From Raillietiella orientalis (taxonomy: Eukaryota): a DNA stretch of 64,000 bases. This document shows positions 22,001-64,000 of this stretch, piece by piece; the stretch's first letter is position 1, and the number at the start of each line of letters is the position of its first letter. The position numbers and the translations under genes are program-made. Below the pieces are notes generated by a model. The model saw nothing but the letters and a program-made list of their open reading frames with translations. It did no database searches and was not told the origin of the DNA. The DNA is taken from positions 3,162,001-3,226,000 of the forward strand of contig JAYWIR010000020.1 in assembly GCA_036172245.1 (NCBI GenBank), given 5' to 3'.

Positions 22001-22351
22001 ATAGGGACGCCATCTGCTTCGACCTGGGCTTCCTGAGGACAGCAGCCAGATGGCTCCATCTGGGACGCATGCAGATGGAACTTGCCAGCATCCTGGAAAG
22101 GATGTAGAGGACGAAATGGAACCTGCAGTGGAACCTGATCCCTTCACCTTTCTCCCCCGGCTTTTGTAAATAGTGCCTTCTTTTTTTTTTTTTTTTGTTT
22201 ATCCCTTCCCCCTCTGCTGCAGAGTGGAACCTCGCCGGCCTGAGTGCCAGTCACTCGACAAGTTCCGAACTTTGTTTCGGATGTTGTAGGGCCTATAGCC
22301 CTACACATATAAGTTTATTGTAGAAATAAATGCCCCGGCGCACCCGGGTGT
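19100..22351 (+). mobile_element. Degenerate non-LTR retrotransposon (L1/Tx1-like LINE): ORF2 remnant plus 3' UTR
   Basis: Frameshifted motifs in order: APE-like VGGDFW (~19435), RT RRGIRQGDSLNPLLF (~20415), VASYA (the DD is missing), GLEVNRAKS, FKYLGVPL, LWG...LCAPRRDRGLGL, C-terminal CVRCGARESLPHLL zinc-knuckle (~21765), then a T-rich 3' UTR, AATAAA and a terminal hairpin. The 5' boundary is approximate. Confidence 0.85.
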
Positions 22352-26769: not shown

Positions 26770-28659
26770 GCAGGGCTGATCACCCTGGAGACGGCAGGCG
26801 GAGCACGGAGAGCCTCGGGGGGTCGGAGAGGGGTCTTTCCGTTGATCCTGGAAAGAGGGGGAGGCGCACCGGGAGAGCCGGCCGCAACCAAGAAAAGGGG
26901 CGCAGACCCCCCTCCCATCCCTCCCGCTTCCGGCTCGGGGCCGCTCTGGCCTATGACGAGATCGTCACCTAATCCCTATAGACGAGGACCCCGAAGATCC
27001 CCCTCAGGCTTGGTCGGGAGTCCCTGAATGTCCCTCCCCTCCTGTGAGGAGGGGGTGCGAGGGCGGGGGATCCCCATGCGCCGGAGGGCGGTACAGGAAA
27101 TCCCCTCCCAGGTACAGGAAATGCCCCCCTTCCTTCCCTGTACCTGAGAGAAAGGAACGCGTCGAGGATGGCAAGGAGGGGTGACAGGGCGCCACCCCAA
27201 AGGGGGTTGAAGTTCGCAGAGGAGCTCTACTCGTCGCTGGCACTGAGCGCCACGCAGCGGCGGTGGTGACGAAGGGCGGGAGGGAACGCCGCCGCACCCA
27301 CCCCGTCGTCATGGCTGCGGCCCTCTCGCAGGCCCTCGGTGCCCGACATGGCAACGGGCCAATGCTCCTTGAAGGACCCGAGGGCGCGCACGTTCTGAAG
27401 GAACGGCAAGGGAAGGGGAGGAACCCGGAGCACCCCAGAGCGAGGAGGGGAACGTCGTTCCAGGGAGACGATGCGGTTTCCTCCTCCCGCGTCACCTCCG
27501 GAAGCGCCGGGAAGTTTGAAGGGGAGGAGGGTGGATGACCTTTAGATGCCTCGTCGAAGAGGAGGAGGACCAGGGGGTAGGGCGGATCCCCCTCCAGGAA
27601 AAGAGAAACAGGCTGCCACTCCCCCTTTCTACTCCTAGGAAAAGCAGATGCTGGAGATGCCCCTCCCTCGCCCGCGCGCCGTTTTCTTGGCCCGCGGATC
27701 GCGTGAAACCGCCCAGGAGGCACCTCCCTCCCCTTCCCAGCCCTTATTCTCGCCCTCCTGCTCCCCTCTTCTCCTACCTCCTCCGCCCCCGCGCCTCCGC
27801 TCACCTGGAAACACCGCGAAAGGGGTCCGGGGAGGATGCGAAGCTGCAGCAGCTTCCCGCCAACCGCGAAGCGACTCCACTGCCACGCCGCGCGCGCTCC
27901 TTCGCTTCCGCCAGTTTCCACGGGAACCGCCTCCGGCTTCGGGTTGGCAGCTGGGCCTTCTCGATGGCTTCGCCTCGGTGGAGCCGCTTCCACGTAAGAG
28001 ACATCGGGAACGGATACTCTTGTGAGATAGGAGGATGGGGGGGGGGGGATGCAGCGTGGAGGAGGATGCAATCGATCGAAGGGGAGGGTGAGGAGGAGGT
28101 GGCGCCCCTTTCTCGCCGCCTCGCACAAGGGAAGAAGGACCCTTCGCTCAAGGAAGGCAAAACGGAAAGGGTGCTCAAGTGCAAGTGCTGCCTCTGGAGG
28201 CACCGACGACAGCGGCGGCCGCAATGGCGGCAGCAACAGCCGTAGGAAAGAATGGGACAAGCAAGCAGCGGCGAAAGCGGCCGGAGTAACAGCAGCGCTA
28301 GCGGCGATGGTCGTAATGAGCGGTGTAGGCTGACTAGTAACAGTAGTCGTAGGTGGCAGTGATAGTGACCAGTGGTGCAGTCGTCACGACCGTGGAGGTG
28401 GCAGCACCGGCAGCATCGGTGATGACGGCAGTTGAGGTGGCGCCAGCTGCGACGGCGGCAGGGATGCCGTTGCCTCCAACAGCACCAGGAGGGGCCAGCG
28501 TCCTCGAGCGCGTGGCCAGGCAGCAGACACCCCTCCTTGAGGGGGGAGGGGGACAAGAACTCCCTGGAGCGGTGAGGAGGGCTGTTTCGCAAGTGCGCTC
28601 CGGGAAGCACCCCCCGTACGTCCAGCCCAGACTATCCCAGCCTGAAAGGGTTGCGTGCC

Positions 28660-37700: not shown

Positions 37701-39916
37701 CTTTTTCAGGTGTCCATTATAGGCACCATGCTGTAGGGGAATGCTGCCATTTCTATCTTTAGCCTCAATGAGTTAGCACCTTGAGCGATAAGATCTTGCA
37801 CTCTGTCCAGACCGTGACCACGAACCAGGTGGCCAAATCCACTTAGGGAGTCACTTAGCTCGTTTTGCGGGAGGAAACGCCTCAAACAGGTAAAAAGCAA
37901 AAAAACAGCGAATCACGTCTGAATTCAAAGAGTGTACAGAAGAACCCCCTAAGAAACTCCGAGAGCATGAGTGAAGTTCGAGTCCGCGGTTTGCAATGGC
38001 AGTCCTCCAGGATTCGCTCACGGCTCGAGTCCACTGTTCATCGTTGCCACATCGAAACGAGGTAGTCGGAAGAGACCCCGATACGGTTTGACCGCACCCT
38101 CGGGAACCGTGCTGACGTACTGGCACTTTGAAACAGCAGGTTGTAACTTTCAAAGAGCTTCCACAGGAACTGCATTCGAAGATCTCTAAAAGCTCAAGCA
38201 CTGAAGTTTCGTCTCGATTTTATTGATTCTGTCTGTTGGCTGCAAGGACCAATCCATCGTGATAAGCGGATGCGGGCGCCACGAAGAAGCAGGCAAAACT
38301 TTCGGATCATTCTGTTGGCAGTAGCAGGCATATCTGCTCTTGAGCAGCTTTCCAGGAAGCCATTGCAGCATGAGATTGAAATTCAGGTCTTTGGTTAGAA
38401 ATCTCTTGACAAAGTGTTGAATGACCACGTGAGTCGATTGCACTTCATCTACAAGCAGACAGAATTTGTTTTCTGATATGTTCATAATGGGTCCAGTCCA
38501 CGGGTCCATCCAAAAGCATCTCTTATCAACTGACTCACATGTGCATTAACAGCACAGAAGAAAACCTTCTTAAGAGACTTCTTCCTGAAGACTTCAAACT
38601 CTGAAGGTCTCTCTGGATGTTCGGCCCCTCCACGGAGTTTTCGCACATCGTGGCCTTGAATCAGCGCGTCCCCTCCCCTCCCCTCCCCACCATTTCCTGG
38701 CCCCTGCTGCACCTCCGCTCCCACCTGGAGAGACCGAGCACCTTGGAATAACCTTGCGATCCACTGTCGTTCTCCTCCGATGCGCATCTTGGAATCTTCT
38801 GCCGAGGTTTGCGAGCGTGTCGTTCTCTCCTTCCACGGAGCGCCGGTCCATTCAACGCCTTGCATCTGTCGGCGAGACATCGCTTGCGTTCGTGGCTTCT
38901 CCCCTCGTCCTTCCACCCATTATCTCCATGCTTCCATGTCCTGCACTCAGTGATCTGAGAACTCGGCTGTTTTTGCGGTGGATGCGTCTTCCGCTCCACG
39001 CCGCCTTCGCCGCTGCAGCCACTCGCCGTTTGACCTTCCTACCATGCGTGCCCCTTTGCCTCCCTCCTCGAGTATTCGCCGAATAATGGGCGAGCCTCCT
39101 ATTACTCCAGTTTATTGCGCTGCACCCTTGCATTCGCGGTCCCGAGATCTGTAACCGCGACCCCGTTGCTCCTGGCTCAGCTCGAGCGTACCGCCATGAT
39201 CCCGCCTCAAGGATGAGCCTCCTGGAAGCATGGTTGGCAGAAGCCGCTTCGGCACTCGCGGCGCCAACCGAGGCTGCACCCCTCGCGTCCATAGCAGCGA
39301 TCGCGTTTACGAAATTATGCGGCGACGCCACTTTTGCTGCCTCTTCCTCCGGATGCTGCCCATCTTTTCGGAGGCTCTCAGATGGAAGATGGACAGGGAC
39401 AGAGGACCAGGAATGATGGTAGCGTTAGCCCCCTCGAGCCCGCACGCTCCCCATTCCCGCAGATCCGCCCATCTTACCAGATTTGGTTTTGGCCACTGCG
39501 ATGGATTCGACTGTCAAGTTAGAGAGGTGGATCTTGAGAATTTGGCCGTCGCTGGTCCCGGTATATAGAATGTTTTTGCTGTAGGCGAAAGATTCCGGAC
39601 CATGGATGGCTCCCGCGAACATCTGTTCTCCATTATTTAGGAAATCGTTTTCCTGTAAAACGCCTCTAAACAAAGGTGGCGCCTCGACACTGGAGATCAC
39701 AGAAACGGGAAAAGTTCGGGGATGGTCGCAGAGGAGCGCCTCCCCCCCCCCCCCCGCATCCGCCCGGTTGCGGGGAAGTTCAGACAACCTGTATCGAGGA
39801 AATTTGATCTCCGGAATCAGCCATGGAAGCAGCGACAGCAGTGCGGAGAACGTGAAGGTCGCTTGGAGGAAAGAGTTGTCCACGAATGTCTGGTTCCTAA
39901 AATCGAACGGATGCAC
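28768..39916 (-). CDS. APMAP: Adipocyte plasma membrane-associated protein / hemomucin-like (strictosidine synthase-like beta-propeller), 5'-partial
   Basis: Phase-consistent exons on the minus strand: 39789-39916, 39478-39689, 35023-35121, 34803-34974, 34618-34752, 29256-29533, 28994-29212, 28768-28937 (TAG), about 470 aa. Motifs: hydrophobic N-terminal anchor, GPES, LYTGTSDG, GRPLG, VADAYMG, IYWTDSS, LHFANGVQLS, NLPGLPDNI, SEV...LYLGSP. The last exon (after a 56 nt intron) is less certain than the rest. The first exon/ATG was not identified. Confidence 0.88.
30610..31330 (+). mobile_element. SINE-like family copy in APMAP intron
   Basis: ccgggattggaagttgaccctccgggatctttccaggaatc and ctaacttgaagagctactacacgcaccctc align to 45559-45600 and 46005-46031. 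Degenerate head (gaatcgaatcc) at ~30653. Confidence 0.75.
31900..34590 (+). mobile_element. Highly decayed LINE ORF2 remnant interrupted by the hAT element
   Basis: APE-like LQD....RNPEDAIFTF (~32010-32060), RT-like PQEWRPLS (~34040) and DARDFRK (~34130), in the expected order. Only weak motif resemblance. Confidence 0.4.
32271..33219 (+). mobile_element. Non-autonomous hAT (SPIN/Buster/Charlie-like) deletion derivative, 949 bp, inside APMAP intron
   Basis: TIRs CAGCGATACTCAATCT (32271-32286) and AGGTTGAGTATCACTG (33204-33219), 14/16 complementary. Perfect 8 bp TSD GCCCAGGA (32263-32270 and 33220-33227). Internal remnant of the hAT C-terminal dimerisation domain: LSEEFKRRFQD...EFW...LTLFRSTCL*ESSYPKMKYAKNNTYRNQLTDSHLDDVLR. 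Confidence 0.92.
36088..38500 (-). mobile_element. Decayed Ty3/Gypsy-like pol remnant in APMAP intron
   Basis: ORF 36088-36759 has RNase H-to-integrase-like traces: KIEAGANTEGL (xDASxxGL-like), IADLSS (ADALSR-like), GHSRI...LYWKQM...CDQ (integrase zinc-binding region). The extent upstream of 36759 is a guess. Confidence 0.4.
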
Positions 39917-46072: not shown

Positions 46073-49000
46073 GGCGAGTGACGGTTCTTTGACGGTGCTC
46101 AGCGAGCCTTCAATCCAAGGAAACTCAGCTGGCAGCTCAAATCGCACCTGAGTGGCTATTCAACACAGCCTGGAATCTCCCCGATCAGCAGCTCTCCCGA
46201 GTGCTCAGTTCTCTCTCATCGGGGAGGCCTGCTCATGGTTCAAATGTCCAGCAAACGTGAGTTCTCCGAACTGGGGACTCTCAGCACTCCAGTTCTTCGA
46301 TTGAATGGACTGCTGTTACGGATCTTCAAGCCCTTGAAGGTCCTGCCTTGCAGTTCAAGTGATGGACTTGTAAGAATCAAGGGAGTTCCCCCACCACCAC
46401 ATCACCCTCGCTCCTCGAAATCCGACTGTCCTCAATGCAGGGGAGGTTCGGGAACCGGCTGCCGCTCTCGGCTGACCAAGCCGTTTCGATTCCAGCAAAT
46501 GCCCGTAGCGTCGAGAATCGGCGCCTGGAGCAGAGAAATGAAGGATCTTGTGAGGTTCCCTCGTGGTCGCTTCCACGGTTTGTTTTCGATTCCACGCAGG
46601 AACCCCAGACGTTTCCAGAAGGATCATCTCAAGTCACGGGATGCAGTCCTGGTGGAGACGCGAGAGGGTCTTGAGACGCAACATACGTAATAAGAGGGAG
46701 GGGGGGCTGATGCCGACTGATGGCGTCTCACGAAAGACGAGGATGCGGTGATTGCGGCTGAGTTCTGCAAGGGGCACCAAAGGGACTCACAAAATCGTTC
46801 CCATTGTCGCCTTCCAATCAGACGCACAATTCTCCTCCTCTCAAAAATGATGATAGCGTTTTACGGTCGTGCGACTGCGACTCTCCAAGAGGGAAAGAAA
46901 TTGCACGTTTGCTTGCGAGAATTTCCGCATCTTCTCGGTGAGTGGATCTTTGCGATCATGTGGTGTCGCTCAGTGTGGTCGGATCAACCGCAGGCTATGG
47001 AGCACGGTTCTGAGCATCCGTATCCGACGGAAATCCAGCTTTGAAAATGCAGCTTTGCAGCCTCTTGGAGTCTCCGTGAAGGAGGCCACCTGCACGACCA
47101 AAGGGGTGTTGGAGCGCGCGTGCGTGTGCGTTTCGAGGCTTTGGGCCCATATTGTACCCTTCTCCATTTTCGCCGCCATTGAGGCGGAGGAAGGCCACGC
47201 TGGAGAATTGCGAAGACCTCGTTGTCGCTCCAGAGGCGGGGGCTGTCTGAAGGAACGGCTTCTTCATCAACAAAACGATTCCCTTAATTTGGCACAGTCG
47301 TATCCGCTCATCCATCCGCCTGCAAAGGAGGTCCCCGAGGAAAGAACTCAGGGTGAGTGATGCATCGAGAAAGTTGACCTGGGTTTCTCTTCATTGAAGA
47401 GGGAAAGGAAACCAAAGAACGGTCCAGTTTCATTCGGGACCTAGACGAAAAAAAGAAGCTTGTAAAAGAATTAAAGCTCAAAAATTCTTCCCACCTTTTC
47501 CTTAAACGGCGCATCTGGCCTTGTTCCCGAACTTGCCGGAAGCTATCCTGAACTGAAGTGCCGCGATGCAGCAGCCGTTGAGATGAAAAATGGGGCTTCT
47601 GTTTCAAAGATGGCATATTTATGTTCTCACTTCCCGATACTCCGCTTCTGGGTTAATGAAAACGAATGTGTGTAAAGTAATTGCATCTGGTTTTCCCGAA
47701 ATGTGCTTCTAGAGCGCTCGTCAAATCGTTCGTGAATATCTGGGAAGTGTCTTTAGGCTGAAGAGTTGCCGCTGTTCCTAAGGTTGCCTAGAAAAAAACA
47801 ATTGCTGTAATTTTTGGCATCATTTTGCAAACAAAATTGAATGAAATCGAAGCCTGTTTTCCAGGATATTCTAAAATATTTATAATTAGCTTTGTTGAGA
47901 AACCTCCAGCCTTCACAGAAATCGACTAAGAATCGAAATCCGCATGAGGTTCTTCCTTTCAAGGGATACTGGATCCTGCAGCTGAGGTTCCTCATGGGAG
48001 ATTTATTGTTCTTTTTCCAAAAACTTTCTCATGTGTTTCCGAGATGTGCATAGCAGCACTTCTCAGTTGGTGGCTCGATATCCTCAGCATTGCCACTATC
48101 ACTTTCATCTACTGAATCCTCAGGAGATTTTGAATGAGCGTTTCTACAAGCACTGTTAACATCGCAATGCTCGAACATCCTCGTTGAAACTAACAGAATC
48201 AGCAAAAATCTTCAAAACAATCTTCTAAAAATCTTCTAATCTTTTAAATAACTTTTGAAGATGATCTATTAGGTAACCTCATCCTTGATTAACCCTTTTA
48301 TTTCTTCATTTTTCGGTTAGCCTTGCATTCCCTCCTTTCTTTAATGGCTGAAGATTGTGGTTTAATTTTGGTTTGTTCCAGGTTCCCTTTTGAAGAGGCA
48401 GAGTCCAGATCATCAAGTGTCCCTGTGCCATGCTCCCTCCAGAAAACATTACATCCTGGGCAATGCAGCATGTTCCAAGATCACTAACTGTTACTGTATT
48501 TTCTAAGCTTCTTATAATTTCATGGACGGTAAAACCAATGTTAAGAGGATAAGATGTCAGAAACATCGAGCTCGCAAAGACGTCTTTGCAGTTTATAGAA
48601 TCAGCGTGACTTTCTTTTTCTGAAGTTACAAGCAGCTCAAGCATTTTGCACACTTATATGAAGGTGAGCTCCTCTTGTGACTGGAATCTTCGTCCAGGAA
48701 TACAGTAACAGTGTTGCCAGAATAAGTATTATGAAAGAATGTTACTCTGCAAAGGATAAGCATGTTACAAGTGGAGGTGAGTTTCCTTGCAACACCTTTT
48801 CAAGCTTTTAGAAGATGTAATCCGTGATGCCATTTTTTTTTTCCTGTTCTGTACCGCCTTTCAAAAGATTTCTGCTTTTGCCAATTACAAGCTGTCGGCA
48901 AAAATAAGGAAGTAACTTGGAAAAGGAAAAAAGTCCCGTCCTGTAGTTTCCAGCTCACAACTTAACATCCACAAATACAGAAGAAAATCGCAAACCAGAA

Positions 49001-49183
49001 GTTTCTCTCAGCTCAATGACGCTTAACTGGCACGAAACCAAAGCTTTGATTCATCTCCAGTATCTTTCTTGATAATCGAGCACTGGCTTCCTTTCTGAGT
49101 CATCCTGTGCCCACGTTCACGCCCCCCATCTCAAAAAGATGGAATCGGCATCTTCTAGTGTAGAGAACATACCTGTCCTCCTT

Positions 49184-49219
49184 CTACCTTTTGGCACCTC
49201 TTTGAGTGCCAAAAGGTAG
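49184..49219. repeat. Perfect 14 bp inverted repeat (hairpin)
   Basis: CTACCTTTTGGCAC-ctctttga-GTGCCAAAAGGTAG. Confidence 0.85.
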
Positions 49220-49849
49220 TAGTAGAAAGGTGGAGCTAGAAAATAGAGGTAGAAACGTGTTGTCCCCACGGTAGCTTCTCATTTTCTCCATCATCCTAGA
49301 CATGATCGTGAGATCCTCGTCATGGTTGAGGAAGATGATCATCAAATATCTCCTTCATGAATCGGTTCCAGATATTTATTGAAAAACAGAGAGCTCAGAT
49401 AGCATCCTTGCTTAAATGTATGAAGAATATTCAGGGTCGTGCCTCTTCGGGACCTGAGCATAGAGATGTTTGTCTTGCCATACAGGTCACCTGTTATTGC
49501 AAGAAAGTACCGATTTGGGGTTCCTCCAGAGTGAGGCGCATCAGAGTGACTATTCCGAAAGCTCTTGCAAGATCCATAAAGAGCAAGGGGATATCTCGAG
49601 ATTTCCTCTCATGTTGTCACGGACAACACGTTTCTTCAGTACTTTGTTGTAGAGAAAGGAGACTTTCTACGAATGCAGATGATATGGCTATCCAGTGCCC
49701 ACTATTAAAACCTTCTTGATGAGCATTTCGCATAGAATTTATTTGTCGTCGCCAATGGTCTTGGGTCGCAATTTGTTGATTCATTCATGATGACATGAAA
49801 ATTTTGGGTGATGGTTCTTGAAAGCTTCTATCTCGGGAGTTCTTTCTTG

Positions 49850-49910
49850 GAGGCAGATGCTAAATATCGATGCCAGTAGTTTTGCTCTCGGATCAGTCCT
49901 CTCCCATTCT
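49850..49910 (+). mobile_element. Ty3/Gypsy RNase H motif remnant
   Basis: Translates LNIDASSFALGSVLSH, matching the xTDASxxAxGAVLSQ consensus. The flanks are not clearly alignable. Confidence 0.4.
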
Positions 49911-50857
49911 TCACATACCATTCCATCGCCTCCCTAAGAACTTCGCCATTCTTAGGGCAGTTTATATTTCTTCTAGGGTAAAGGCGGGTTAGGTTGCATC
50001 CTACCTTCCAAAATTTACAGTCTCGTTGATAAATTATTTGGAACCTTTCACATTTTGTTCATGGCAAACTTCTTTTTATGGTGTTTTCAAAGTTGGTACA
50101 TTTTTTGCTATCTAGAGTAGAGTTTCTTGAGACAGCTTGGGAAGCTCCAGAGCAATTTTGCATTTTAAGAAACATTAAATTTCAAACGCCCAAGGACGAT
50201 AGAATTCGGCACGCTCATTTTTCTGTAATTGATTCATTTTGTCCAAATATGTGTGTTTCTTCGCTGCAGCAAATGCTAATTCCATTTGCTTATCAATCAG
50301 AAATTCTTGGGAATGTTTACAGTGTGAGGCATTTGTTTTTTTCTTTTTCGTGAAGAATGTAATTCCTTTGGATGCTGTGCTACTGCTATTTTCATCTGAA
50401 CGAAAGAGAACGACCAACTACAGGTCGTTAGATAAGTGCGGGCCTTTTGAATTTGGACGGCACTATATGTACACTAACTTTTCGCTATTTATGGTAATCA
50501 CGAAAAGTACTTTGGTGATTATGGACAGGCGAGCGACCGGAAATCCGTCCGGGGAAGATTTTGAACTTCAATGGGCTGAGTTTTTTCCACAGTGCGTCTG
50601 TTCTTGTGAAGAAGGAAGTGGAATTCGATCTGGAATACGGTGTTACTAATCCTAACGAGTTTTGCGATTTCAGTTGGTAAAATTCAAGTGTACGTAATAT
50701 ACATGGCAGTGTGTCTTATTAAGATGTTGTGTCATTATTAAAATAGCAAGTTATTAAAGTTAAGAAAGAACTTGTCGATGAAATTAATTATAAATTAATT
50801 GGAATAACTGGTCAAACTGTTATTACATTGATATAAAGGAAATATTTGAATTTAGTC

Positions 50858-52975
50858 ATGTGTGAGAAGGATAGCCGCGAATCATTGAGTGCAATTCGTG
50901 AAGAAGAGAAAGAATGAGAAGCTTAATTCATTCTTATGATCTCTCCAACTTGCCAGCATGGTCACAAGGATATGTTTTACTTTGTGATGCCATGCGGAGA
51001 GGTTGCCAAACTACTTTTCATAAGTGGTTGCAAAGTGAACAGCAAATATACTAGACCTTCCTATACTCTTCACTTTGCTGCTGGGAATGGTGACATAGAG
51101 ATTGTGGAGATGCTTTTAGATAGAGGTGCTGGTATTGATGCTACTGATCAGTATGGTAGAACTCCACTTCACATAGCAGTTCAAGGTGTGAAAAGGCGAG
51201 TTGTTGGATTAGCTTTACATCATAGGGAGGTTATTTGCACCAGAAACAGCCCCAATGTAACTCCTTTTTGCCTTGGTACGAAAGATAGAAGTTATCGAAC
51301 TGCTTTTAAGTAGAGAGATGGCATAACTTCTCTTCATATGCTGGCAGTGGGAGGGTATTTAGAAATTGTGGAGTGTCTTTTAAAACATGGAGCTAGTGTC
51401 AATTCTACATGTACCCATCTCTCTGGGAAGCCACTGCACCTTACTGTTGTAGGAGGACATGATGAAGTGGTTAAGCTACTTTTAGAGTGTGGAGCTAACA
51501 TTGATGCTCAAGATAACCATGGTAAAACTGCCCTATGCGTTGCTGTTAAAGAAGGATGTTCAGTAATTGTTGAACGTGTTTTAAAGCATTGCCCGGATGT
51601 GAATTACAAAAGTAATAAAAGCACTCTTAATGCTGCAGTGCAAGGCAATAGAAATCAGTATAGTAGGATTGTTGAAACTCTGCTTCAGTATGATTTTACT
51701 GTCGATTCAGAAGATGTAAATAATTGTGAATTTCTGCATGCTGCTGTTGAGAAAGGATCTTCGAAAATTCTCGGAGACCTCTTAAAGTATGGTACTGATG
51801 CTAGCATGCCTGACAACTCAAGGTAGGGTTATAAGCCTTTACGTGTTGCAGCCAAATACAAAAAGGAAGAGGTAGCCAAATTGTTGATAAGCTATGGAGC
51901 TGATGTAAATGCTAAAAGCAAAAATGGTTTAATGCCAATGTTTTTTGCTGTTCGGAGTGCTGATTTGGAAATTACCAAGCTACTTTTAACTAATAAGGCT
52001 AATGTAAAAGATAATCCTGAGCTACTGTGTACTGCTGCTGAGCAGGGATTCAGAGAAATTGTTGAAGCTCTTTTACAACATGGTGCTGACATTAATGGTA
52101 GTGATGAACGTGAAAGAATGGCATTGCATTTTACCAGTTCAGATGACCAATTTTTAACAGCAAGGGAGAAATTGCCAAATTGCCTTTGAGTAGAGGAGCT
52201 AATGTAAATGCTAGAACTAACAAGGGTATAATGCCACTTCATGATGCTGCTGGAAATGGTCAACTAGAAGTCGTTAAGGTCTTCTTGAAATTTGGTGCCA
52301 GCATGGATTCTAAAGATGAATATGGAGAACAGCACTTCACATTGCTTCTAAAACAGGACATGTAGAAGTTGTCGAAACTCATCTAGAATTGGTCCTGATA
52401 TTAACATGACTAGTAAAAATAATTATACACCACTTGATTTTGTTATGTATGATGTAGAATTTCAACATCCATTCTACACTGATAATTCCAGTGATTACCC
52501 TTGTTATCGTAATACCTTTCTATGAAGTAATTTATGAAATTCTTGCACGCCACATACTTAAGATGCAAACTGCAAATTTATATGTAAATGAAAGAAATAT
52601 AATGTTGCTTGATAGTTACTATGCATCCGAAATAAGCCATTTTGAGAGTGTGTGTAAGGAAGAAATAAAAATGATGAAGAGTGAAAAGACTGGTAATTCT
52701 AACGCCTCATTCTATGACATCTTGACAAAAAATATAAATCAACCAGCAATCCTCTTGGGAAATGAAGATATAGTACAAGCCTTAAAATCGGACGATTATA
52801 AAACAAAATTCCCAATATACGCCAGTATGATAACTAATCGTTTTAGGAAGGGGGAAAGGAGGAAGGAATTGCTTAAGCAAAGCAATGAAAATTGCCACAT
52901 CTTTTCTGTTATCGCATGACTGTACTGAAAAGGTACTTTGTTATCTAAGCAACGAAGATTGAAGAATTTTAATAG
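50858..52975 (+). pseudogene. Intronless ankyrin-repeat protein pseudogene with C-terminal PRANC/F-box-like domain
   Basis: Serial ankyrin repeats (LHFAAGNGDIEIVEMLLDRGA, GRTPLHIA, KPLHL..GGHDEVVKLLLECGANID, LHDAAGNGQLEVVKVFL) spread across ORFs 50936, 51338, 51881 and 52180, broken by stops and frameshifts. C terminus SFYDILTK...FPIYASMITNRFRKGERRKELL, then in a shifted frame HDCTEKVLCYLSNED. Putative ATG at 50858. Confidence 0.85.
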
Positions 52976-53449
52976 ATTCTCATCAGTGTATTAATGCTAG
53001 TAGGCTTGATGGTAATATTGACAATGTGGCAATCACTTCAACTATGTCCAATACATCAATCATGCTTAGGTTGATAGAGTAGCAAGGCAAGTTATAGGTA
53101 ATGATTGCTTCATAATTTCATGTTATTTCAAGGAAGTCATTTCATTTCTAAAACTGTACTTGGCATTTCTGATTTTTTCAATAGATTATTTGTTGTTTAT
53201 TTCAAAAAGGGGTAAATGGTAATCTACTGTTCCATTGTCGTAGAGGAATTTGAACATTGGAAAAAAATGAACGTTAGGACGAAGCACCATGCATAACGGA
53301 CGTATAATTGGGTGTTGCGCAGCTGTGGTACATTCCGACATTTTTTTTCCCTTTGAACTAAGCATTCTGTACGTTTTGGGCAGTCCTATTTCCATTTTGC
53401 TTTAGGAGAAATCGTAAGCAGTAACACCATTGAGTGTTGTGAGTCGCAT

Positions 53450-54980
53450 TCTGGGCTTCGGTGCATCGTAACCGACACGGTTTTCGAAATTCCTTATGAC
53501 ATTGGCACCGAGGTGTTTCTCCCTCGCATTACCATCCACCCATACACTCTGTCGTCATCCAAACGTTGCTAGCAGTTTTTGCCGCACCATATCTTATCAA
53601 GCTCGGTATACAGACAGTCCTGAATGCCCATAGATGTTGGATGTCTCACCTGAGCTCAGCAGACGAAGAGGTGACCAAAAGTGATTTGACGAGTTACCGG
53701 AATTGCATACTGCAGAAGAGAAGCTCACGGAAATCCATGCCCCAAAACGCGAAGGATAGTTCGCCGTGGATGTGATACCGAAATGTGCAGTGTATAATTG
53801 ATTGCCCTATATTCAGTTCTTTACAAAGACAAAAACATTCATGGATGTCCATGCGGACGCTCACGAGGACTCGGAAACGGAGACTCGTGATTTTAATGCT
53901 ACAGCCCAAAGACTTGCTGAGGCTATGCGGGTAGCACATTCTCGTATGCATGTGTGATTGGGTGTTCAAGTGAATGTGAAGTAACTTGTTTTGGAAATGC
54001 GGAAAAGCTGCCCGATCGGAGGAATTTGGAATTCTGTCGCGACGTGTTCTCTTCCAATTCAATTCTGACGCATTCTCTTGATTCCAAGGAGCACATTCTA
54101 GCATCACAGGTTGCCTGTTTATCCACATCTGTAAATTTCGGATGAAATTCCTGCAGGTGGATCATGATCCTAGAATCGGAGGCTTGTTGGTTGGTGAGTG
54201 GCATGAAGAACACAAGGTACTTGCGCAAAATTGAAAAATCGGGCCCCAAAAGCTGTACAGAACAGATTGATCTTTCCATCTAGTTGGTTAGTAAGCAAGA
54301 GTTTGTAGGCCGAGCTGTGTTGACGCATTTTTCCACATGTCGAGCAGTGCTGTCTCTCAGAAAGGCATCTCTTTTTTTTTCTCACTTCGCACCGTATAGG
54401 ATTGGATCTGCACCCAATGCACCCACTTTTGGTCGCGATCCTCGTGCACATTTGCTCACCTTCACCAAGAGTCCCCTTGTTTCAGTCCCTGGTTTCAAGT
54501 CACCAGATGAATGCAAGTTCGGCCTTTCACCCCGCCATAATCCCAAGCAGGGTGCAACATTTCAAGAGACCTCAGACCACTCTGAACTGGAGGACCTCGG
54601 AGATGCCCTTTGCAGCCACGGAATGTTCCGCGTGGTTGAATGCAGCGGCAATCTATCGAGATTCGTAGTTTAGGCGATTGCTTGTATGTGTCCTTTTGCA
54701 CGTTTGCTTTCAGTTTTTGATTTCATAGCCTGCCTCCTTACTACTCAGAATGTCATAACCAATGGCCGGGAGTGCACTTTCTTCGCCTATCAAATGAACA
54801 AAACGTGGCCTCCTGTTTCAAGCATCTCACCGACAATAGTAAACGCCATAACATGTGGACGCTGTACCCTGATCTCCTCTTCAATGACGTGAAGGAGCTG
54901 TCGGAAGGAGGAGTCAATTTGGAAAGCCTCGTGCAGATGTGTCTGATGCAGCCAATGGAACGTGTCGGGGTCCACCTTTC
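53450..54980 (-). mobile_element. Possible decayed LTR-retrotransposon gag-protease remnant
   Basis: Minus-strand order: CSTCGK..H (zinc-knuckle-like), WINRQPVML (protease-start-like), LYTELDKI (pre-RT ELDRL-like). All weak. Confidence 0.3.
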
Positions 54981-57900
54981 CCCTTTATGAGCACCCTAAG
55001 GAAAGCTATGCGCACCTCACCGACGACTCGGTCAGACGCTTTTGCACGTTGGACAGATTTCCGCTTGCAATGTCGAAACGATTCCTCATGTGCAGAAGGC
55101 CCGAGTCGTCCGATTGAGACAAGATTTACAAGATAAAGTCCCCATTTCGATGTGAGGACACGCTTCTCAATTACTTCCTAAAGCACGCTGAGAGCAACAT
55201 TTCAGGCAAGGAGGGGCTGAAGCAACAACCCTTTGTACGCTATGAAAGCTGTGAAATCTGAGTGTGGGGTTTTATTTTGGAAAAGAAAAATTCCGGTCTT
55301 ATTGAAATATGCGTTTAGTAAAGGAAATTTTCGCATATACGAATTTGTTGATGGGGATCGCGGGATCCGAAAGCTACAGATGGACGTTATTAGGAAATGA
55401 TGATGAGAACGCAGAAGACAATTCTTATGATATTTGCGTTATAGGTGAAGACTCATCGAGAAAGCGATCGGCATAAGGAACTGTGGCAGAGTGCCAGCCT
55501 GGACTTATCGGTACATCTTGAAAAGGATCGAAGATGACCCAGGCTCAATCAATGCCCAGCCCACCCTAATGCAGAACCCCAGTATTGTGACTCCTATTTA
55601 GTGACCTTTAAAGAAAACATAAGTGACAGTGAAATGCAAATTGAATGAATGAGTATGCAGTGTGAATGTAAAAGAACAATAAATTTACCCCACCCCCTGT
55701 AGGATTGGGAAAATCGAAAACGCTCGAGTTGATCTCACTTCCGAAAAACAGTCCGGAAGTTTGGAAGGGAGCGTCGATGAACCCAGAAATGGTCCTCCGT
55801 TTAAAGGAGACAATGGAAATGTAGAAGAGTCAACTATGAATTGATAAGTGGGTGCCCTCCCCCTTTCGTTTTCCTAAGTCCGAAAGCAGAGCTTAAATCC
55901 AGCGATGGTTTTGTCGATTATCTTCAGGCAAGAAAAACGCAGATTCTTCTGTTGACCGTTTTCGTGATGCTGACCGGCTTTTTCTTCGGTTTCTATGCAT
56001 GTCGGGGTAGCTGCCGCACTGGAACAGTATGTGATTTTTGCGTGATTTCGAGTTTGCGTTGGCAAGCAATTGATGATCAGTGCGAATTTTTTGTTTTCTA
56101 AAAAAACAGCGTCATGATAACATCTAGACACAATTTTTATGTCGTTTGTTCGGAGGATTAAGGAAATCAGCGTGAAGATTACACGTACCGATATGCCGTG
56201 AATGCTTTTCATCCTTTTCTTTGATTTTGGAAGCATAGGACAGATTTTCCATCAAGAGACTGCTGTAATGTCCACATGGGAGCATCTCACTGTCCTCCAG
56301 TTGGTCTCACAAAGTTAGCCCACCCCAAACCTTCCACGTGTTCGAATTGCACAACTCGAGGATTGGATTCGTTTCCTGCAGAAGCAGCATCCACACCAAC
56401 TGCGTCCGCTTTTTTTCTTGCGTACGCAACGTTTTGATAGATTATATTTGCTCGTTGCTTCTCCACGCTCATGGATTCGGCTGAGGCAGACTGCTCAAAG
56501 TTAGAAGTGTAATGTGAGTTCAGCTAATCGGCGATGGAGAAAACGCAACCTTTCTCATCGTAAAACGTTCTGAAAGAATAAAAATCGCGTTCCTTTTCAC
56601 AATGTTTACATGAATTCGTTCTCTTAATCGTCGCGTTTTCAACTGTTCCATAAAAAATAAGTAATGTTCTGCACGTCATGGTATTTCACTCATCGTTTTA
56701 AAGAAAGCAAAAACAAAACCGAGGCGATGCCGAAGCTTTTTGTGAGACTACCCAAACTGACTCAGAGAACCTTTAGGAAGCTTAAGGAAGTGTGCATTCA
56801 AAGGACATTTCCAGTTGAATTCAAGGTGTTACTGTGGAGATCCCCGTGGTAGAAGGTGTCTGCTTCGTATCGGAAGTAACGGCAATGTGAGCAGCCAACG
56901 AAGAAGCAGAGCTCTTGTTAGAACATGTCTTGATCAATTTTCATTTCCTAGGAAAATTCCACAAGGAAAGCACACGCTCTTTTCGGCAACTTTCCACACA
57001 TCGCAATAGTCTTCAATGTCCTTCCAGTGCAAGGAATAGCAGCACCCAAAAGAGTAATTAATCGCTCCTATAGTATCTCTCAAAGTCATTTGTTCCAGGA
57101 TTTAATTATAGTTTCTGATTTCATGTTGTGTGTGAAAAATCCAATGGCAGCACTCATACCGACTTTTCCGGTTATGGACAAAGTCTCAGTGTGACCTTTC
57201 ATTTTGAAACAAGTTTTGAAGTCCATGGCCCTTGGTTCTCCAAGGGCCATCCCCAAAGATTGGCAAAGAGTATCCTCAAGGATATCACGAACTTTACAAC
57301 TTTCCAGAATGCTCGTTTTTCTTTTGTTTTTCCACCTCTGAGTCTATTTAAAGGTTTAAGGAAGCCTTTGCTACATGGCAAAATCACGTCCTCTCGTGGC
57401 TTCCCTCTTGTACGAAGGGCACCATTCGCTATGACTGAGAATCCGAGGTCCTCGAAAGTTTCATCAGCACACTCACTTCATTCCTTGTAATCATTGCCTT
57501 TCTGCAGACCCATGTTCTGACTAGCTTCATGAGCTTCAGGTGGCAAGCTTTTATTCATACTATTCTTTTTCATTTTTTTGTTTTATTTTTGCATATTCAT
57601 TTTTTTTTTTCATAATAACAGAGAAAGTGAGGGATATCTGAATGAAAAACGAATGAAACTCCCGTTTAATTCAATCACTTGAGCAGAGACTTCGTCGTTG
57701 TCCGTCGGAAGCGATGAAGGAATTTTTCACTGGCCTCCTTTCCCACTTGCTTTATCACTAATAATTCGTGGTAACGCCCCTAATTTGAAAGCGGAAGCAG
57801 CTAGCAGCGAAGCGAGTCCTGCAGGAATTTTGTGGGGTTTGCGCACATTTGCGACTGGATCAGCCCAGTTCCGTTTGCCATCACCTCCTTTGAAATTGCA

Positions 57901-60900
57901 TATGCTTTTAGATGTAATTGGTCTGCACTTTTTAAGAAGAAAAGTCACAGCAACAGTTATGATTTCTGGTGAAGGAAAGTTCAGATTAGGTGTCAAGTTC
58001 AGAGGTGACGAGAAGGTTTCTATCCCTTCGGAAGCCCTCCCAAGGAGAAATTCACGCTCACCGAGATTTGCTTTCGAAAGCAGAAAAACATTCTCGAATT
58101 TAAAAGGACCGGATGGCTGAATAGCTTACTGAAAGGAAGGGTTGCGAAGTGATGTTATGTAAAGTTCAACTGGAATGAAGGATTCGTTCCTGGATGAATG
58201 CGTTCATAATGATAATCTGAAGGTGGAACAAAAGGAAGATGAATTGAAGTTGTTGTATCAATAACGAAGCCATTCTATACTTCATAGCGGGTCCCTTGGA
58301 TGTCTTGCAGAATGGTCCAGATTCAACAAAAAAGGGAAATGACGCCTATTTGGCAAGAAGCTCCGTTCCACTGGTGATTCCGAACCAGGGAATGAGCACT
58401 CTACTAAAAAACAAAAAATAGGGAAAACATGGGGGTTGGATGCATAGAATAGCACATGCTTTGATGGAAAGCTGGAAAATTTTAAAGGAACACGAAAGAA
58501 TGCGCACCTTAAGGAAGTCAGCGCTGGTGTTTATGTGGTAAAAGATTCATTTTATTGAATGAAGGGGATGGTAGTCACATCTATGATGAATCTTCTTAAT
58601 AGATTGTTTTCCAACCAAATTTCGTTTCCGACATCAGACCGTGACTATCTCTTAAAGAAAAGATATTTCGTAAGATGTTCAAAAGATGGCTATTGACCAA
58701 CAATTTTCGTGGTTCTCAGATTGGAAACATTTTCAACGCTTGCGTCAGAAGCTCGGCAAAAGAATGTAGGAAGAGAGCAGATTACTCAAACTTTGCTAAT
58801 ATGGTCCGTATGTTTCGGAACGGATTCTAACTTGTCTCTTGTGGAAGAAAAAACCGTAGTTAAATAGACACCATAAATTGGAAGGGGAAAACGAATGTTG
58901 CCATCCACGTCAAAAGGCACAGTTCTTTCGTTTGCTGCTTGCTGTTGCATTATAAAGTGCGAACAAGAAATAGAGGATTACGTGCTTGAAACAGTGAAAA
59001 AGATGCACCGTTACAGTACAAGTGTTGTTTTTATTCTTCAGGCTGCGGCCTCTGTATTGGCATTGGTCGCAAATACATGAAAGGCTTTGTGTTAACGGAA
59101 CAGAGGGAAACAAACTTGTGCCCCAAGTGCTGAATCCGAACCAATGATCAGATGAATCGATTAGGGTGTCGGGAAGCCGAAGAAGATGGTAGAGATCTAT
59201 TCTTTGAGCCCCTCACTATAGTTATTGGTTTGTTGATCTCCGCGCAAACAAATTATGATCTCACGCAAGAAAGAGTCCATCTGTCTTTAATCGGAAACGC
59301 ATGGAAACAAGCAATGAAAGCCTCTTACCTGGGATCCACTGCATTCGACTTCATGTCATCTTCTGAGAAAGTAGTGAAGCAGTGCAAATTGGAGATCCAG
59401 AAAATCGAATGTGATGATGTGATCGCTTCAATTAAGGTTCTCTTGCACAACAGACTTTGTCTGGGAGCATAAAACTTTTCTTTTCTTTACATAAGCAGTG
59501 TTAACTCGAAGCACGACATCCACGAACTATCAGTGATTGTCCTTTCCATTACAGAAAATGACTAGAAGTACTGGGACGGATACCTGTGCATCCTCCGAAC
59601 GGGTACCATCTCTCAGGTTCAATACACCAGACGAGCCAGAAAAAGGAGCCCGTTCTTCGCTCCACGTTACTTCCTTCGGACATTGCAGAATTCACTGCCG
59701 CTTTCAACTCATGAAGCCTGAAGAAAGCTGCAACGACGTCACCCGGTTTCCGTAGTGAATGTCGAACCCAGTGCATTTCGATGTATTAGACTCATCCTTT
59801 CCATCAACTTTGGAAGCAACCCGAAGGTGTGGAAAACAGGATAGTTTCGACTTGTGCCTTGGGGTGCTTTCGGGAAAGCAAGCTGGCATGATGACTGCTC
59901 GAAGCAACGGGACATCTCCCATGCACGACGGGGCTTCTCCCTCAGGACTGTGCGTCGCCTTGTTGGGACTTTTAAATGGCGCACCACACACCAGCATCAG
60001 CAGTCATGTTGGGAATATGCATTCTTGTTTCCTTCTTCTTCGTTAGGTAAGTACTGTTTGGTTGAGAGATTTTTCATTTGGACTCTTTTATTATGGTCCT
60101 TGTAGATCTTTATAGAACCATCTTTGTAGATGGTGGAAAAAAGTCACTATGTAACTTGACTGGTAGCTCCTTCGAACGAAAATTTCCGAGAAAAATCTGT
60201 CTTCTCCGCTCCACTTGCAAACCAATGGAAACGGTGAAATCAAAGAAGAGAAGCAATCAAACATTCGGAATAGCATCGCAAAACACAGTGAGTCCTGCGA
60301 ATCGATGGAGATTCAAGAACGCAGGTTCCAGAAGCCAGGAAATTTCAGTTTTGAAGAATTAGTAGGCATGTGACCATACTTAGCCCAACACATGTCATTG
60401 TGATGTCACGGTGAGCAGAAACTGCTCATCTCCCCATGATGAGAATGAAATCTTGATGTGAAAAGGAAAATTGTAGTGACGGACGATGCAATTCACCATC
60501 CTATTCTGCCGGGCGATTTACGCAGTCCCCCAACCGGCTTACAACTGTTCTGAAACTTCCAAGCAAAATTTCAAAAAATGCGTGCCAATGTATTCAGCTC
60601 GGACGGCCATTCAAACAGGAGATTCTTCGCCTCCTAGGCAGCACCAGTACGGTTGCTCTATTCGGCACTTCCTGGTTACCGGGGAACGTCATCAATCTAA
60701 TCAGCGATCCTTTTTGGCTACCGCAGTGTTGTTTCGTGGTCAGCTGCTGTCCTTTCTTCTGATAGGTCATGAAATTTAATTAAAAGCAACATTACAGTGT
60801 GAATGGAATGGAAGGGAACAAAGCTGGTGCCGAGCACCGTTGCAGAAATGGGCGAAGTCGGGTGCTTCGCCCATTAAGAATAACCTGGATGCCTTGGTAG

Positions 60901-62138
60901 AGCGGGAGACAAGAACAACTCCGCTTCAGTGACACGAATGGACATAATCCCAAGACAACAAATCAAATAGGGAAACAACAGCTGATCCCCGGTTGGAAAA
61001 AGTGCAGTCCTGGTCATTTCATAATCGTCATCGACGCCTGTCCCGTAGAAAAATGGACCTGGAAGTTCGGTCAAAGACACGTACATTAAAATAGGCACAC
61101 AATGCTTCCAGAACTATTTCAACCGACAAGTGTTTAAGAAGATGAGGTATGTTTGTCATCGGTGTTGGGCAATCCCCTCCTGAGGCTCACAAGAGCGACT
61201 AACTGGAAACTCGTTATGCTGTAAGGTTACCAATTGCGACGGTTATGATCAGAGAAAGAAGAGTTGACTTGCATCTTCGGAATAACTAGAATCAAATAGA
61301 TAACAGAAACTCCGCCAATGGAGAGTACGCCGTCACCCTTTCTCCTTCGTGAACATATAACCGTGGCGAAAGCTGCTACGAAAGGGTTGCCTTCCTTAGG
61401 GTGGTGACACAGAAAATGTGCGCTACCGTTTCGGGAACGTGCGTGAGTGTGATGCACGGACGGGGATCTGGATGGATGGAACCAAAAGTTTGACGTGTAG
61501 GTGTGAGCACGGCAACGTCAAAACGGCTAAAGTAGCGCAGGGAAGAGCAGAGAAACTCCGCTTAGAGGAAGAACGAATTCTCCCCTCCGAGAATCCAAAA
61601 AAGAAAACGAAATAGCCGAAGGAGTACGAACTCATTTGTGTACGAACGAGTACAGGCAGTATGTAGGGGAAGGATAGAAAAAAGAAAGCAACGAGGAAGG
61701 CTGTCGGAAAACAGGATGGGAAGATGTTTCCATGGCATTAAGATGTGGAAAAGGCATCTTGCTTATCTTTTCTGATTCAAACCTGATCATTTCTGATAGA
61801 AGAAACGGGAATGCCCGGAACAGCGATCAGCACTACCCAGGAAACGTCCAGAGGATACGAATTCCTTTCCATATTAGGGATTTCAGAATGAAACGCGAAA
61901 TTCGGCACTGAGAAGTCTTGAGTTAGAAGAAATGCATGTGCGTATCCTAAATGCCTGTTTTAGAAGAACGCAAGAGGAGTGATTGCGTTGTAACTTCTAT
62001 TAAGTTGAAATCGAGACTCTTACCCGATTCTATCAAACTCCATGTGCAAGCAAGCTGACGAGCAGGAGCCCTCAATTGCACTTTCTCCTCGTCACAGACT
62101 ATCGCATGAATGCACAAATTCCTTATTCTATATGACAG

Positions 62139-62446
62139 ATAAAGAGGACGGTACAGCTCTTCCATATTACAGTTATATCGCTTGTGATTCTACATTAAAT
62201 CCATTAAAAAAATTCTTTCAACTACCCGGTGGACTACAAGATGCTTTCTTTTTTGTTCCAAAGGACCATGACCTTGAATTCCTAGTTGAACGACATCCGG
62301 TTGATATCTTCAGAGAAAAAGACCAGAGAAAGGGAAATTCAATCAGGGACGGTTGGCAAGATATTCCATACCAAGAAATTCATAATGAGACGGTCTTCAC
62401 GACAACGGACTTGGAAAGTTACTTTGAAATCCAAGCTGTTTGCTAA
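62139..62446 (+). CDS. Candidate terminal exon of an unidentified gene
   Basis: Acceptor ttctatatgacag| then about 102 open codons of ordinary composition (DKEDGTALPYYSYIACD...ESYFEIQAVC*). No family recognised. Confidence 0.3.
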
Positions 62447-64000
62447 AAGAAGGGTGACGATGGAACGGATGAAAACCGAATTTCGATGATTTCATGAGAA
62501 TTCTAGATGATTTCAGTATATTTGGCTGCAAAAAAAAAACACACACATACGCACGCACACTCGTAATACAAGAGTGTAGCACCCACAGTACCGAATTTTT
62601 GTCATTCTCTCTTTGCGTTCTCTAGCTGCTGACTTTTTGGAATGCCTGCCTTGCGGCTCCCTTCCGGCATGGTCTCACTGACCCTGGGCTGACCAGCTAG
62701 AAGGAGAGCGCAGAGCCCTCATGCTAAATTCTCTTCCCACGCGGAGGCTGTCTCGAGAAAGCGAGCACCCAACTCGCTGATCCTGCTCCCCCGTTCCCGT
62801 CTGAAGACCTCCGCCGTTTCGTTCCGCTAGCAGGGGAAACACGCACAGGACCTCTGTGTGTGCCTCATGAGTCGGCTTTCAGCATGCGTTTTGGGGTTAT
62901 GGGCACACCACTGAGCCACTGCATGACCGCAGCAACTTTCTCCTGTTCACCCAGTGTCCCTGATCCTCAGAGACCGGGGATGCAGGCTGGCTCGCCTCAT
63001 ATCCGTACAGGAGAGGTCTGTCAACCCACTCCGTGCTGTTTTCCGTACAAGCGCCGATACTGTCTTCAGGAGGCATCAGGATGGGAAAGGGAGGCTCTTG
63101 GGAGCAGATGGACAAGCAGTGCCATCTGGTTCCCTCCAATGGCGACGCTTTTTTGGTTACTTTGGAACCGCTATGGAATCTTCTCGTCCTTTCTGTCTTG
63201 AACCGGTCTTCTTGGTTGCGGTTGCTATCACGGTGGCCTCCCTTCGCTTTGGACACGTCTCGAGCACATGCAGGCCTTGGCGGTGGCGCGGACTCAACAC
63301 ACGGTGAGAAAATCGAGCAGAACATTGACTCCAACAAAGAAATGGTACCAACCGATGTGGATGTGGTTGGGGTTTCTCGCAAAAAATTCCATAAACTCAT
63401 GCGGATGGGACAAGATGATGGACAGGAGATGGAGAGATGGAGGTGGCAAAGATGGGGAAGATCGCAAAGAACCTTGTCGATTTGCTCTATGCAATCTCTC
63501 CGTTCATCCCCGCAAACGCTCACTTTGGGGGGATGTCCAGCTCGTGTGGCACGCCATCGTTCTTGAAATCCCAGTACCCCATGGGCCGACAACGAATGCA
63601 CGAACCGATGCTCTGATTCTTCCTGGAGAGGAAAGCTCGTGGTTGAAACGTTTTTCTTCTTCGCGTTTGCTGACCCGGAACGCTGCCGGAGTGCTTTCGA
63701 ATGGACAGCACGAGTCGAACATCATGATGCCATTCCCTTTTCTGAGGAAGAGTTCGGGTCGCGATGCCGCCTTGGTGTCTCTCCAGGATCTTCCCTGCGT
63801 CTCCTTCTTGATCAGATGATGCAAAGTTGAAAGCGCTAGCTGCAAAGAGTTAGAATGTGAGACGACACCTGACCCCATCCACTCTGGAACCGACGGCTAG
63901 ATCGATCTCCTACCTGCTTCCCACCGGCTGCTCAGGTAAAAAGAGACGAAGGCGTGCGGCACGAAATAAATTGGAAAATCCTGATCCTCAGAGTGATGTG

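Follow-up and report, generated by a model that had tools for sequence, protein, structure and literature searches.

A decayed ankyrin–PRANC gene of Wolbachia/phage WO type within a duplicated MRPS30 cassette of an arthropod chromosome

The 64,000-nucleotide stretch of DNA analysed here, the window, belongs to a 3.45-Mb contig and contains an intronless ankyrin–PRANC pseudogene at 50858–53082, which is accompanied by a row of further features (Table 1). Its reading frame is not intact: the ATG at 50858 leads into only 19 open codons, three stops lie at 51311, 51824 and 52960, and relative to the copy on contig C6 (contigs of the assembly are designated with a C) there are about seven net frame changes, near 50890, 51000, 52150, 52325, 52390, 52455 and 52905. 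A preliminary description of this DNA had spoken of several stops and frameshifts, which these counts bear out, and its limits for the block, 50680–53190, agree with those of the foreign part within about 100–150 bases. The window copy makes no functional protein and died early.

Table 1 Features in and around the ankyrin–PRANC pseudogene (window coordinates)
Position	Strand	Feature	Evidence
49261..50113	-	Remnant of a decayed, presumed retroelement (reverse-transcriptase-like)	73–78% DNA identity to C14, C29, C80
50158..50690	+	Host DNA forming the 5' flank of the cassette	Common to copies
50738..50857	+	Non-coding DNA, about 110 bases, similar to the spacer that precedes gwv_1092	Alignment and shuffles
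50858..52450	+	Interrupted (stops, frame changes) ankyrin-repeat part and non-ankyrin leader in common with gwv_1092	Pfam
52458..53082	+	C-terminal linker, PRANC, F-box-like end	PRANC 18.8 bits at 52698–52889
53496..55245	+	Passenger MRPS30 (PDCD9 family) pseudogene, four introns	PF07147 match
55300..56068	+	Remnant of the gene that comes next at the C14 locus, with an acidic N-terminus and a hydrophobic stretch	78–87% DNA identity to C14
56100..60730		Decayed stretch travelling with several copies; origin unexplained	Genome matches

What kind of protein did this gene once encode? The Pfam cut-offs for Ank are passed by four of the seven stop-free pieces scanned (Ank_2 E values between 2e-6 and 7e-29), and the C-terminal tail quoted in the preliminary description is present, split over two frames as FPIYASMITNRFRKGERRKELL and HDCTEKVLCYLSNED, so that the claimed ankyrin array with a PRANC-type tail stands. 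PRANC (PF09372) reaches 18.8 bits (E 0.002) on the cut piece 52458–52916 and falls short of the cut-off of 25.8, the domain being interrupted by a frame change, while the unbroken C6 paralogue (26.8 bits) and Wolbachia P0005 (33.5 bits) pass; other family members score slightly below. The F-box-like end of the window copy lies in a different frame and then meets the stop at 52960, and F-box scores on the tail of one paralogue are weak (E 0.06–0.09). A search of solved structures by sequence returned no relative.

The closest counterpart among phages is found in phage WO. Window DNA matches three of 50,697 phage records, all of them phage WO, and the gene concerned is gwv_1092, with 70.6% DNA identity along the gene and 45% protein identity over 399 residues; the leader and tandem ankyrin repeats of the window copy are colinear with it. 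In WOVitA1 (KX522565, AOA49510.1), where it is part of the eukaryotic association module, it is named 'ankyrin repeat with PRANC domain protein'; it has the same order of leader, ankyrin array and PRANC tail and is 48% identical to the unbroken C6 paralogue over 623 residues. Unlike gwv_1092, the window copy resides in a host chromosome, is broken and has a smaller number of ankyrin repeats. Its phage neighbours were not found there: Hsp20, gwv_1089 and gwv_1156 have zero matches in the stretches examined, and the matches to gwv_1093 are interpreted as ankyrin cross-matches. Judged by these alignments, only the gwv_1092-type gene of the phage locus appears to be represented in the host stretches. 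The architecture had been described as typical of Wolbachia and poxviruses; a Wolbachia/phage WO source is supported and a poxvirus source is not, phage WO being the sole viral match in the phage records searched.

A Rickettsiales genome carries an orthologue with 70–72% DNA identity in the three longest pieces, which cover most of the gene, and with 57% identity between the two tails. There the orthologue adjoins Hsp20, and two nearby frames, with a Pfam match to neither, are presumably cytoplasmic-incompatibility factors. A query with the family tail returned 24 proteins, the top named match being from Wolbachia group A (47%, E 2e-61). Upstream of the gene, the alignment score with the phage spacer was reached by 3–5 of 300 shuffles for the window and by 0–1 of 300 for C14, and was not significant for C6 and C34; this spacer-like stretch may sit inside a putative 5'-UTR intron (GT 50677, AG 50854). 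Bacterial DNA 3' of the gene was considered and rejected, the alignments being mostly no better than shuffles (best 11 of 300). As a separate observation, Wolbachia-like remnants lie on C6 (~36–46 kb), 12–22 kb from the intact C6 copy; over 1.8 kb they match the Rickettsiales genome with 72% DNA identity, and they include a frame of the ExoD family (E 5e-30).

The composition of the block stands out within the window. Between 50927 and 52980 the GC content is 0.373 with 25 CpG and a CpG o/e of ~0.36, as against 0.518 and 0.89 for the whole window, and the bins 51001–52000 and 52001–53000 have the lowest CpG o/e of all 64 1-kb bins, a clear drop over the pseudogene. The preliminary description was correct in calling the block AT-rich and CpG-poor, but the addition 'unlike host genes' applies inside the window only. 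Three native gene stretches elsewhere in the assembly are level with or below the pseudogene (0.37/0.37) in GC/CpG o/e: an F-box exon (0.32/0.14), Pus10 (0.37/0.36) and a gene on C78 (0.33/0.39), probably a consequence of gene-body methylation. With native values of GC 0.32–0.37 and o/e 0.14–0.39, composition was rejected as a sign of foreign origin: low GC and low CpG are no marker of foreign DNA in this genome. The corresponding values are 0.34/0.48 for gwv_1092 and 0.39/0.69 for the unbroken C6 copy. GC-rich exons lie at 24200–27000 (GC 0.65, in contrast to the AT-rich native genes elsewhere) and at 39400–39900 of the window; we read them tentatively as glycosylasparaginase and a strictosidine-synthase-like gene.

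The family has been amplified, and this after the presumed transfer: the genome-wide count gives 33 matches to the tail in the 210-Mb assembly, and the AT-rich copies form one clade with flanks in common. These AT-rich copies occupy 17 places, 15 with the tail and two with the 5' part only, and have flanks in common with the window over 49261–56068, in whole or in part. Among ten host copies aligned, only C6 is free of stops and frame changes; together with its near-twin C65 it makes up the only AT-rich pair still unbroken. A distant second group on C43, C73 and C54 comprises 12 open frames of 585–1028 residues with a GC3 of 0.41–0.85; the tail of a GC-rich paralogue returned no matches as a query. 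The near-identical pairs C6/C65, C29/C80 and C5/C104 are located on small contigs, and some of them may be unmerged haplotypes. Shortened forms of the cassette occur as well: C18 and C104 carry the 5' part of the gene, and C35 has the flank block alone, four times. On C29 the cassette is framed by a pair of inverted 500-base repeats (78% alike, 18.6 kb apart, at ~2771.8 and 2790.2 kb); these may be retroelement pieces placed there by chance or may have had a role in moving the block.

The flanks reveal what travelled along. Region 50160–50900 has 21 genome matches including the window itself, the others at 67–81%, and the 5' flank block has no match in the phage locus. The upstream remnant is taken to be a retroelement from motifs recognised by eye; Pfam found nothing in any of the nine frames of 49201–50201. 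Downstream, the MRPS30 pseudogene of the window has 6 stops and 9 frameshifting indels compared with the intact gene on C14, and introns of 47, 47, 49 and 53 bases. The C14 gene itself was considered as an error-ridden pseudogene, which was rejected: what had looked like frameshifts are four GT-AG introns (47, 47, 53 and 53 bases), via which it splices to 531 residues. All ten other copies examined are broken, with 4–8 stops and 6–18 frameshifts each; introns 1 and 2 are retained at 47 bases in every one of them, and seven extend to introns 3 and 4. Genome searches, which may miss short exons, found no further intact MRPS30 candidate, and an ESM Atlas search for MRPS30 gave no result. A PDCD9-family match on C78, which we take by its motifs to be MRPL37, was dismissed as the parent, having no DNA match to the cassette.

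With the C14 gene intact, all others broken and the introns kept, C14 is therefore likely to be the landing site and founder locus, where the ANK–PRANC gene lies upstream of the sole intact MRPS30 found, and it was by DNA duplication and not by retroposition that the cassette spread. The founder ANK–PRANC is itself broken by six frame changes. At 804.9–807.4 kb of C14 a 2.5-kb AT-rich insert (GC 0.29) separates the 5' block from the gene, in the founder only among the copies examined. No Pfam family was found for the C14 frames of the neighbouring gene whose remnant follows MRPS30 in the window. The last decayed stretch of Table 1 has 17 genome matches (C17, C29, C104, C5, C80 and others; 69–92% for those other than itself) and was not found within the 30 kb of C14 examined; C17 as a second intact source was rejected, its stretch being decayed and without a long frame. 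A mobile element with its own transposase was likewise discarded after zero Pfam matches in 58 stop-free frames of 47000–50700 and 55000–62500. Elsewhere, 20968–22053 of the window and a piece just past its end form an inverted 1.1-kb pair (99.3% identical, 46 kb apart), presumably retroelement-like and labelled by eye.

These observations bear on the retro-copied insertion that had initially been offered as an alternative. If the gene were a processed retrocopy from a host ankyrin gene with introns, the intronless coding part and the dead retroelement upstream would fit. However, no intron-bearing parent was found, the long paralogues examined are all single open frames, the closest sequences are bacterial or scattered, and the introns retained in the adjacent MRPS30 copy contradict such a route for the duplication step, which leaves this origin scarcely credible.

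The same flanks allow us to gauge whether the window represents a separate foreign insertion or even a contaminant chimera. Its abrupt fall in GC and CpG would suit either, and the outer junction is spanned by none of eight read contigs (8 of 18 listed), a figure from a low-cover run with 15 of 30 bins covered, so that holes are uninformative. The right flank is moreover a mosaic, 98–100% identical to the C104/C5 copies over 53100–53850 and equally so to a different C104 copy over 54100–55350; it points to recent exchange or an assembly switch, and the change of partner near 54100 could also stem from assembly error. Against this, both flanks are 70–85% identical to the other copies and trace to C14, about ten breaks are not expected in a live symbiont gene, and two read contigs, from a run that may derive from the source sample itself, agree with window-specific sequence with zero differences and cross the frame changes near 52150 and 52390. 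We regard an independent insertion or a chimera as very improbable. Of the decayed foreign insertion first proposed, the Wolbachia-type character, the decay and the position in a host chromosome stand; the separate insertion at this site does not, since flanks on both sides are common to the copies and lead back to C14.

Who are the nearest relatives? A tail profile search yielded 2,482 representatives, and quick unrooted trees were calculated with 66 and 40 of 184 rows over ~170 columns, excluding the truncated C54 tail. The six AT-rich tails group in one clade (SH-aLRT 98–99) among short-branched Wolbachia-type rows and scattered arthropod copies; its sister is not a Wolbachia sequence but two Lasius ant genes (97–98). 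Nine distant paralogues fall into a separate clade (96–98), and one more stands apart. The named relatives come from a scatter of arthropods: ants, bees, a weevil, a firefly, a lacewing, wasps and Artemia (10 of 20 looked up with a species name). Artemia franciscana protein P0075, 'PRANC domain-containing', belongs to the family as a crustacean case. The sole chalcid sequence, from Trichomalopsis, is distant (E 2e-8) and on a long branch. As to the host itself, the 14 cuticle-protein matches and one chemosensory protein in the assembly mark an arthropod, and one that may not be an insect, none occurring among the best 120 of 677 matches to a host gene; no odorant-receptor match was obtained, though the control for that search gave none either. 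The best trees place the AT-rich clade amid Wolbachia-type rows; on this unrooted quick tree of ~170 columns the AU test (p = 0.325) does not reject a grouping of the 15 host rows tested into a single clade, and two captures are therefore likely but not demonstrated.

Because the nearest named relatives are Lasius genes, the exact donor is unsampled. The gene might accordingly have come from another arthropod or from an unsampled symbiont or virus and not directly from Wolbachia: the sister group consists of the Lasius genes plus two further proteins, and prokaryote genomes searched with the window's own tail gave no match. The Lasius genes are, however, short-branched, as for recent copies from a common bacterial donor; other Wolbachia-like DNA is present in the host on C6, and the upstream spacer is like that of the phage in two of four copies tested. 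We consider an indirect source unlikely. A deeper alternative is that the gene family is old in the host, that the AT-rich copies arose from the GC-richer C43/C73 paralogues, and that phage WO acquired it from an arthropod of this kind. These paralogues have the same leader and tail, and 12 have long open frames; the single host clade is compatible with the AU result, and PMC5062602, which describes gwv_1092, argues that PRANC came into phage WO from eukaryotes, which is also why the deep direction of transfer is open. Yet the AT-rich tails are 49–57% identical to the bacterial tail and only ~24–39% to the GC-richer paralogues, the two host groups are apart in the best trees on supported branches, and close relatives are scattered over arthropods in an order unlike host kinship. 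An ancient host family as the source of the AT-rich copies has, in our judgement, only a slim chance of being correct.

Did the gene matter to its host? A codon model was applied to six ANK–PRANC copies and their six MRPS30 passengers with break codons masked. Omega is 0.63 for ANK–PRANC versus 1.12 for passenger MRPS30, and with omega fixed at 1 the former loses about 22 log units and the latter less than one. Recombination among the copies blurs and weakens the branch estimates, which are 0.41–0.46 for C6, 0.39–0.42 for C29 and 0.47–0.49 for C14 (upper limits 0.55–0.81), 0.68–0.85 for the window copy with intervals that include 1, 0.33–0.42 for native MRPS30 and 0.73–1.15 for the passengers. 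From the C6, C29 and C14 values it follows that the gene was constrained in several lineages and useful for a time; constraint there is as strong as that of native MRPS30, while the passengers are without any. Two of the constrained lineages have since been broken, and the window copy shows early, neutral decay. The dead MRPS30 passengers represent a neutral control inside the same cassette.

Taken together, we favour, with a probability of roughly 0.8, that a gwv_1092-type gene of Wolbachia or phage WO was captured, landed by MRPS30 on C14, was kept for a while, was duplicated with its neighbour and decayed. A single ANK–PRANC gene of this type would have passed from Wolbachia or its phage into the host germ line, the transfer, its direction and its donor being deduced, and would have settled just upstream of MRPS30, where its position is observed on C14. 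Purifying selection, as dN/dS suggests, would have held it for a time. By analogy with its family, the ankyrin array may have bound a target that the PRANC/F-box-like tail passed on to a Skp1–cullin ubiquitin ligase; such a former adaptor role is what we infer from the PRANC/F-box link made in PMC5062602 and PMC6161386. A DNA block of 5–11 kb would then have been duplicated many times, as common flanks and retained introns indicate; the extra MRPS30 copies probably died at once and the ANK–PRANC copies one after another. Ongoing sequence exchange among the copies may finally have produced the mosaic right flank in the window. A more tentative proposal, which we would not yet put forward as probable, is that a non-insect arthropod acquired one and the same phage WO gene on two or three occasions, an earlier acquisition leading to the intact C43/C73 family (GC3 0.41–0.85) and a later one to birth-and-death in the MRPS30 cassette. 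If true, the host would have repeatedly kept a symbiont ubiquitin-ligase adaptor, and dead MRPS30 would offer a built-in neutral clock for each copy.

How does this compare with known systems? Nuwts are multi-gene nuclear Wolbachia transfers. As here, symbiont DNA decays in an arthropod chromosome, and DNA of that kind is found on C6; the present case differs in that only one gene would have come across, and that it was selected for a time. PMC13320244 names nuwts and counts 245 ANK transfers across 45 ant species, leaving open the adaptive value of Wolbachia ANK genes in ant genomes. PMC6161386 describes an old ANK/PRANC transfer in chalcids, the Chalcidoidea lineage-specific CLANKs, and recent ones that were amplified in Pseudomyrmex, Ceratina, Microplitis and Bemisia. 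The present gene does not qualify as a CLANK, with the chalcid Trichomalopsis sequence distant and the host-gene matches as given above. The literature searched contains no report of PRANC genes in a non-insect arthropod, though supplementary species tables may hold cases. The window copy by itself is ordinary, a dead member of a kind of transfer already described from wasps, ants, bees and whitefly; its added value is a rare clean history that shows where the gene probably landed and how it spread, with a neutral control carried in one and the same cassette. Three constrained sister copies next to unconstrained passengers bear on the adaptive question raised in PMC13320244. As in the insect Wolbachia-derived ANK/PRANC genes of these two sources, transfer was followed by host amplification, with species-specific clusters beside Wolbachia sequences; expression is reported there, while the present genes are known from DNA alone, and here founder site and neutral passenger can be traced.
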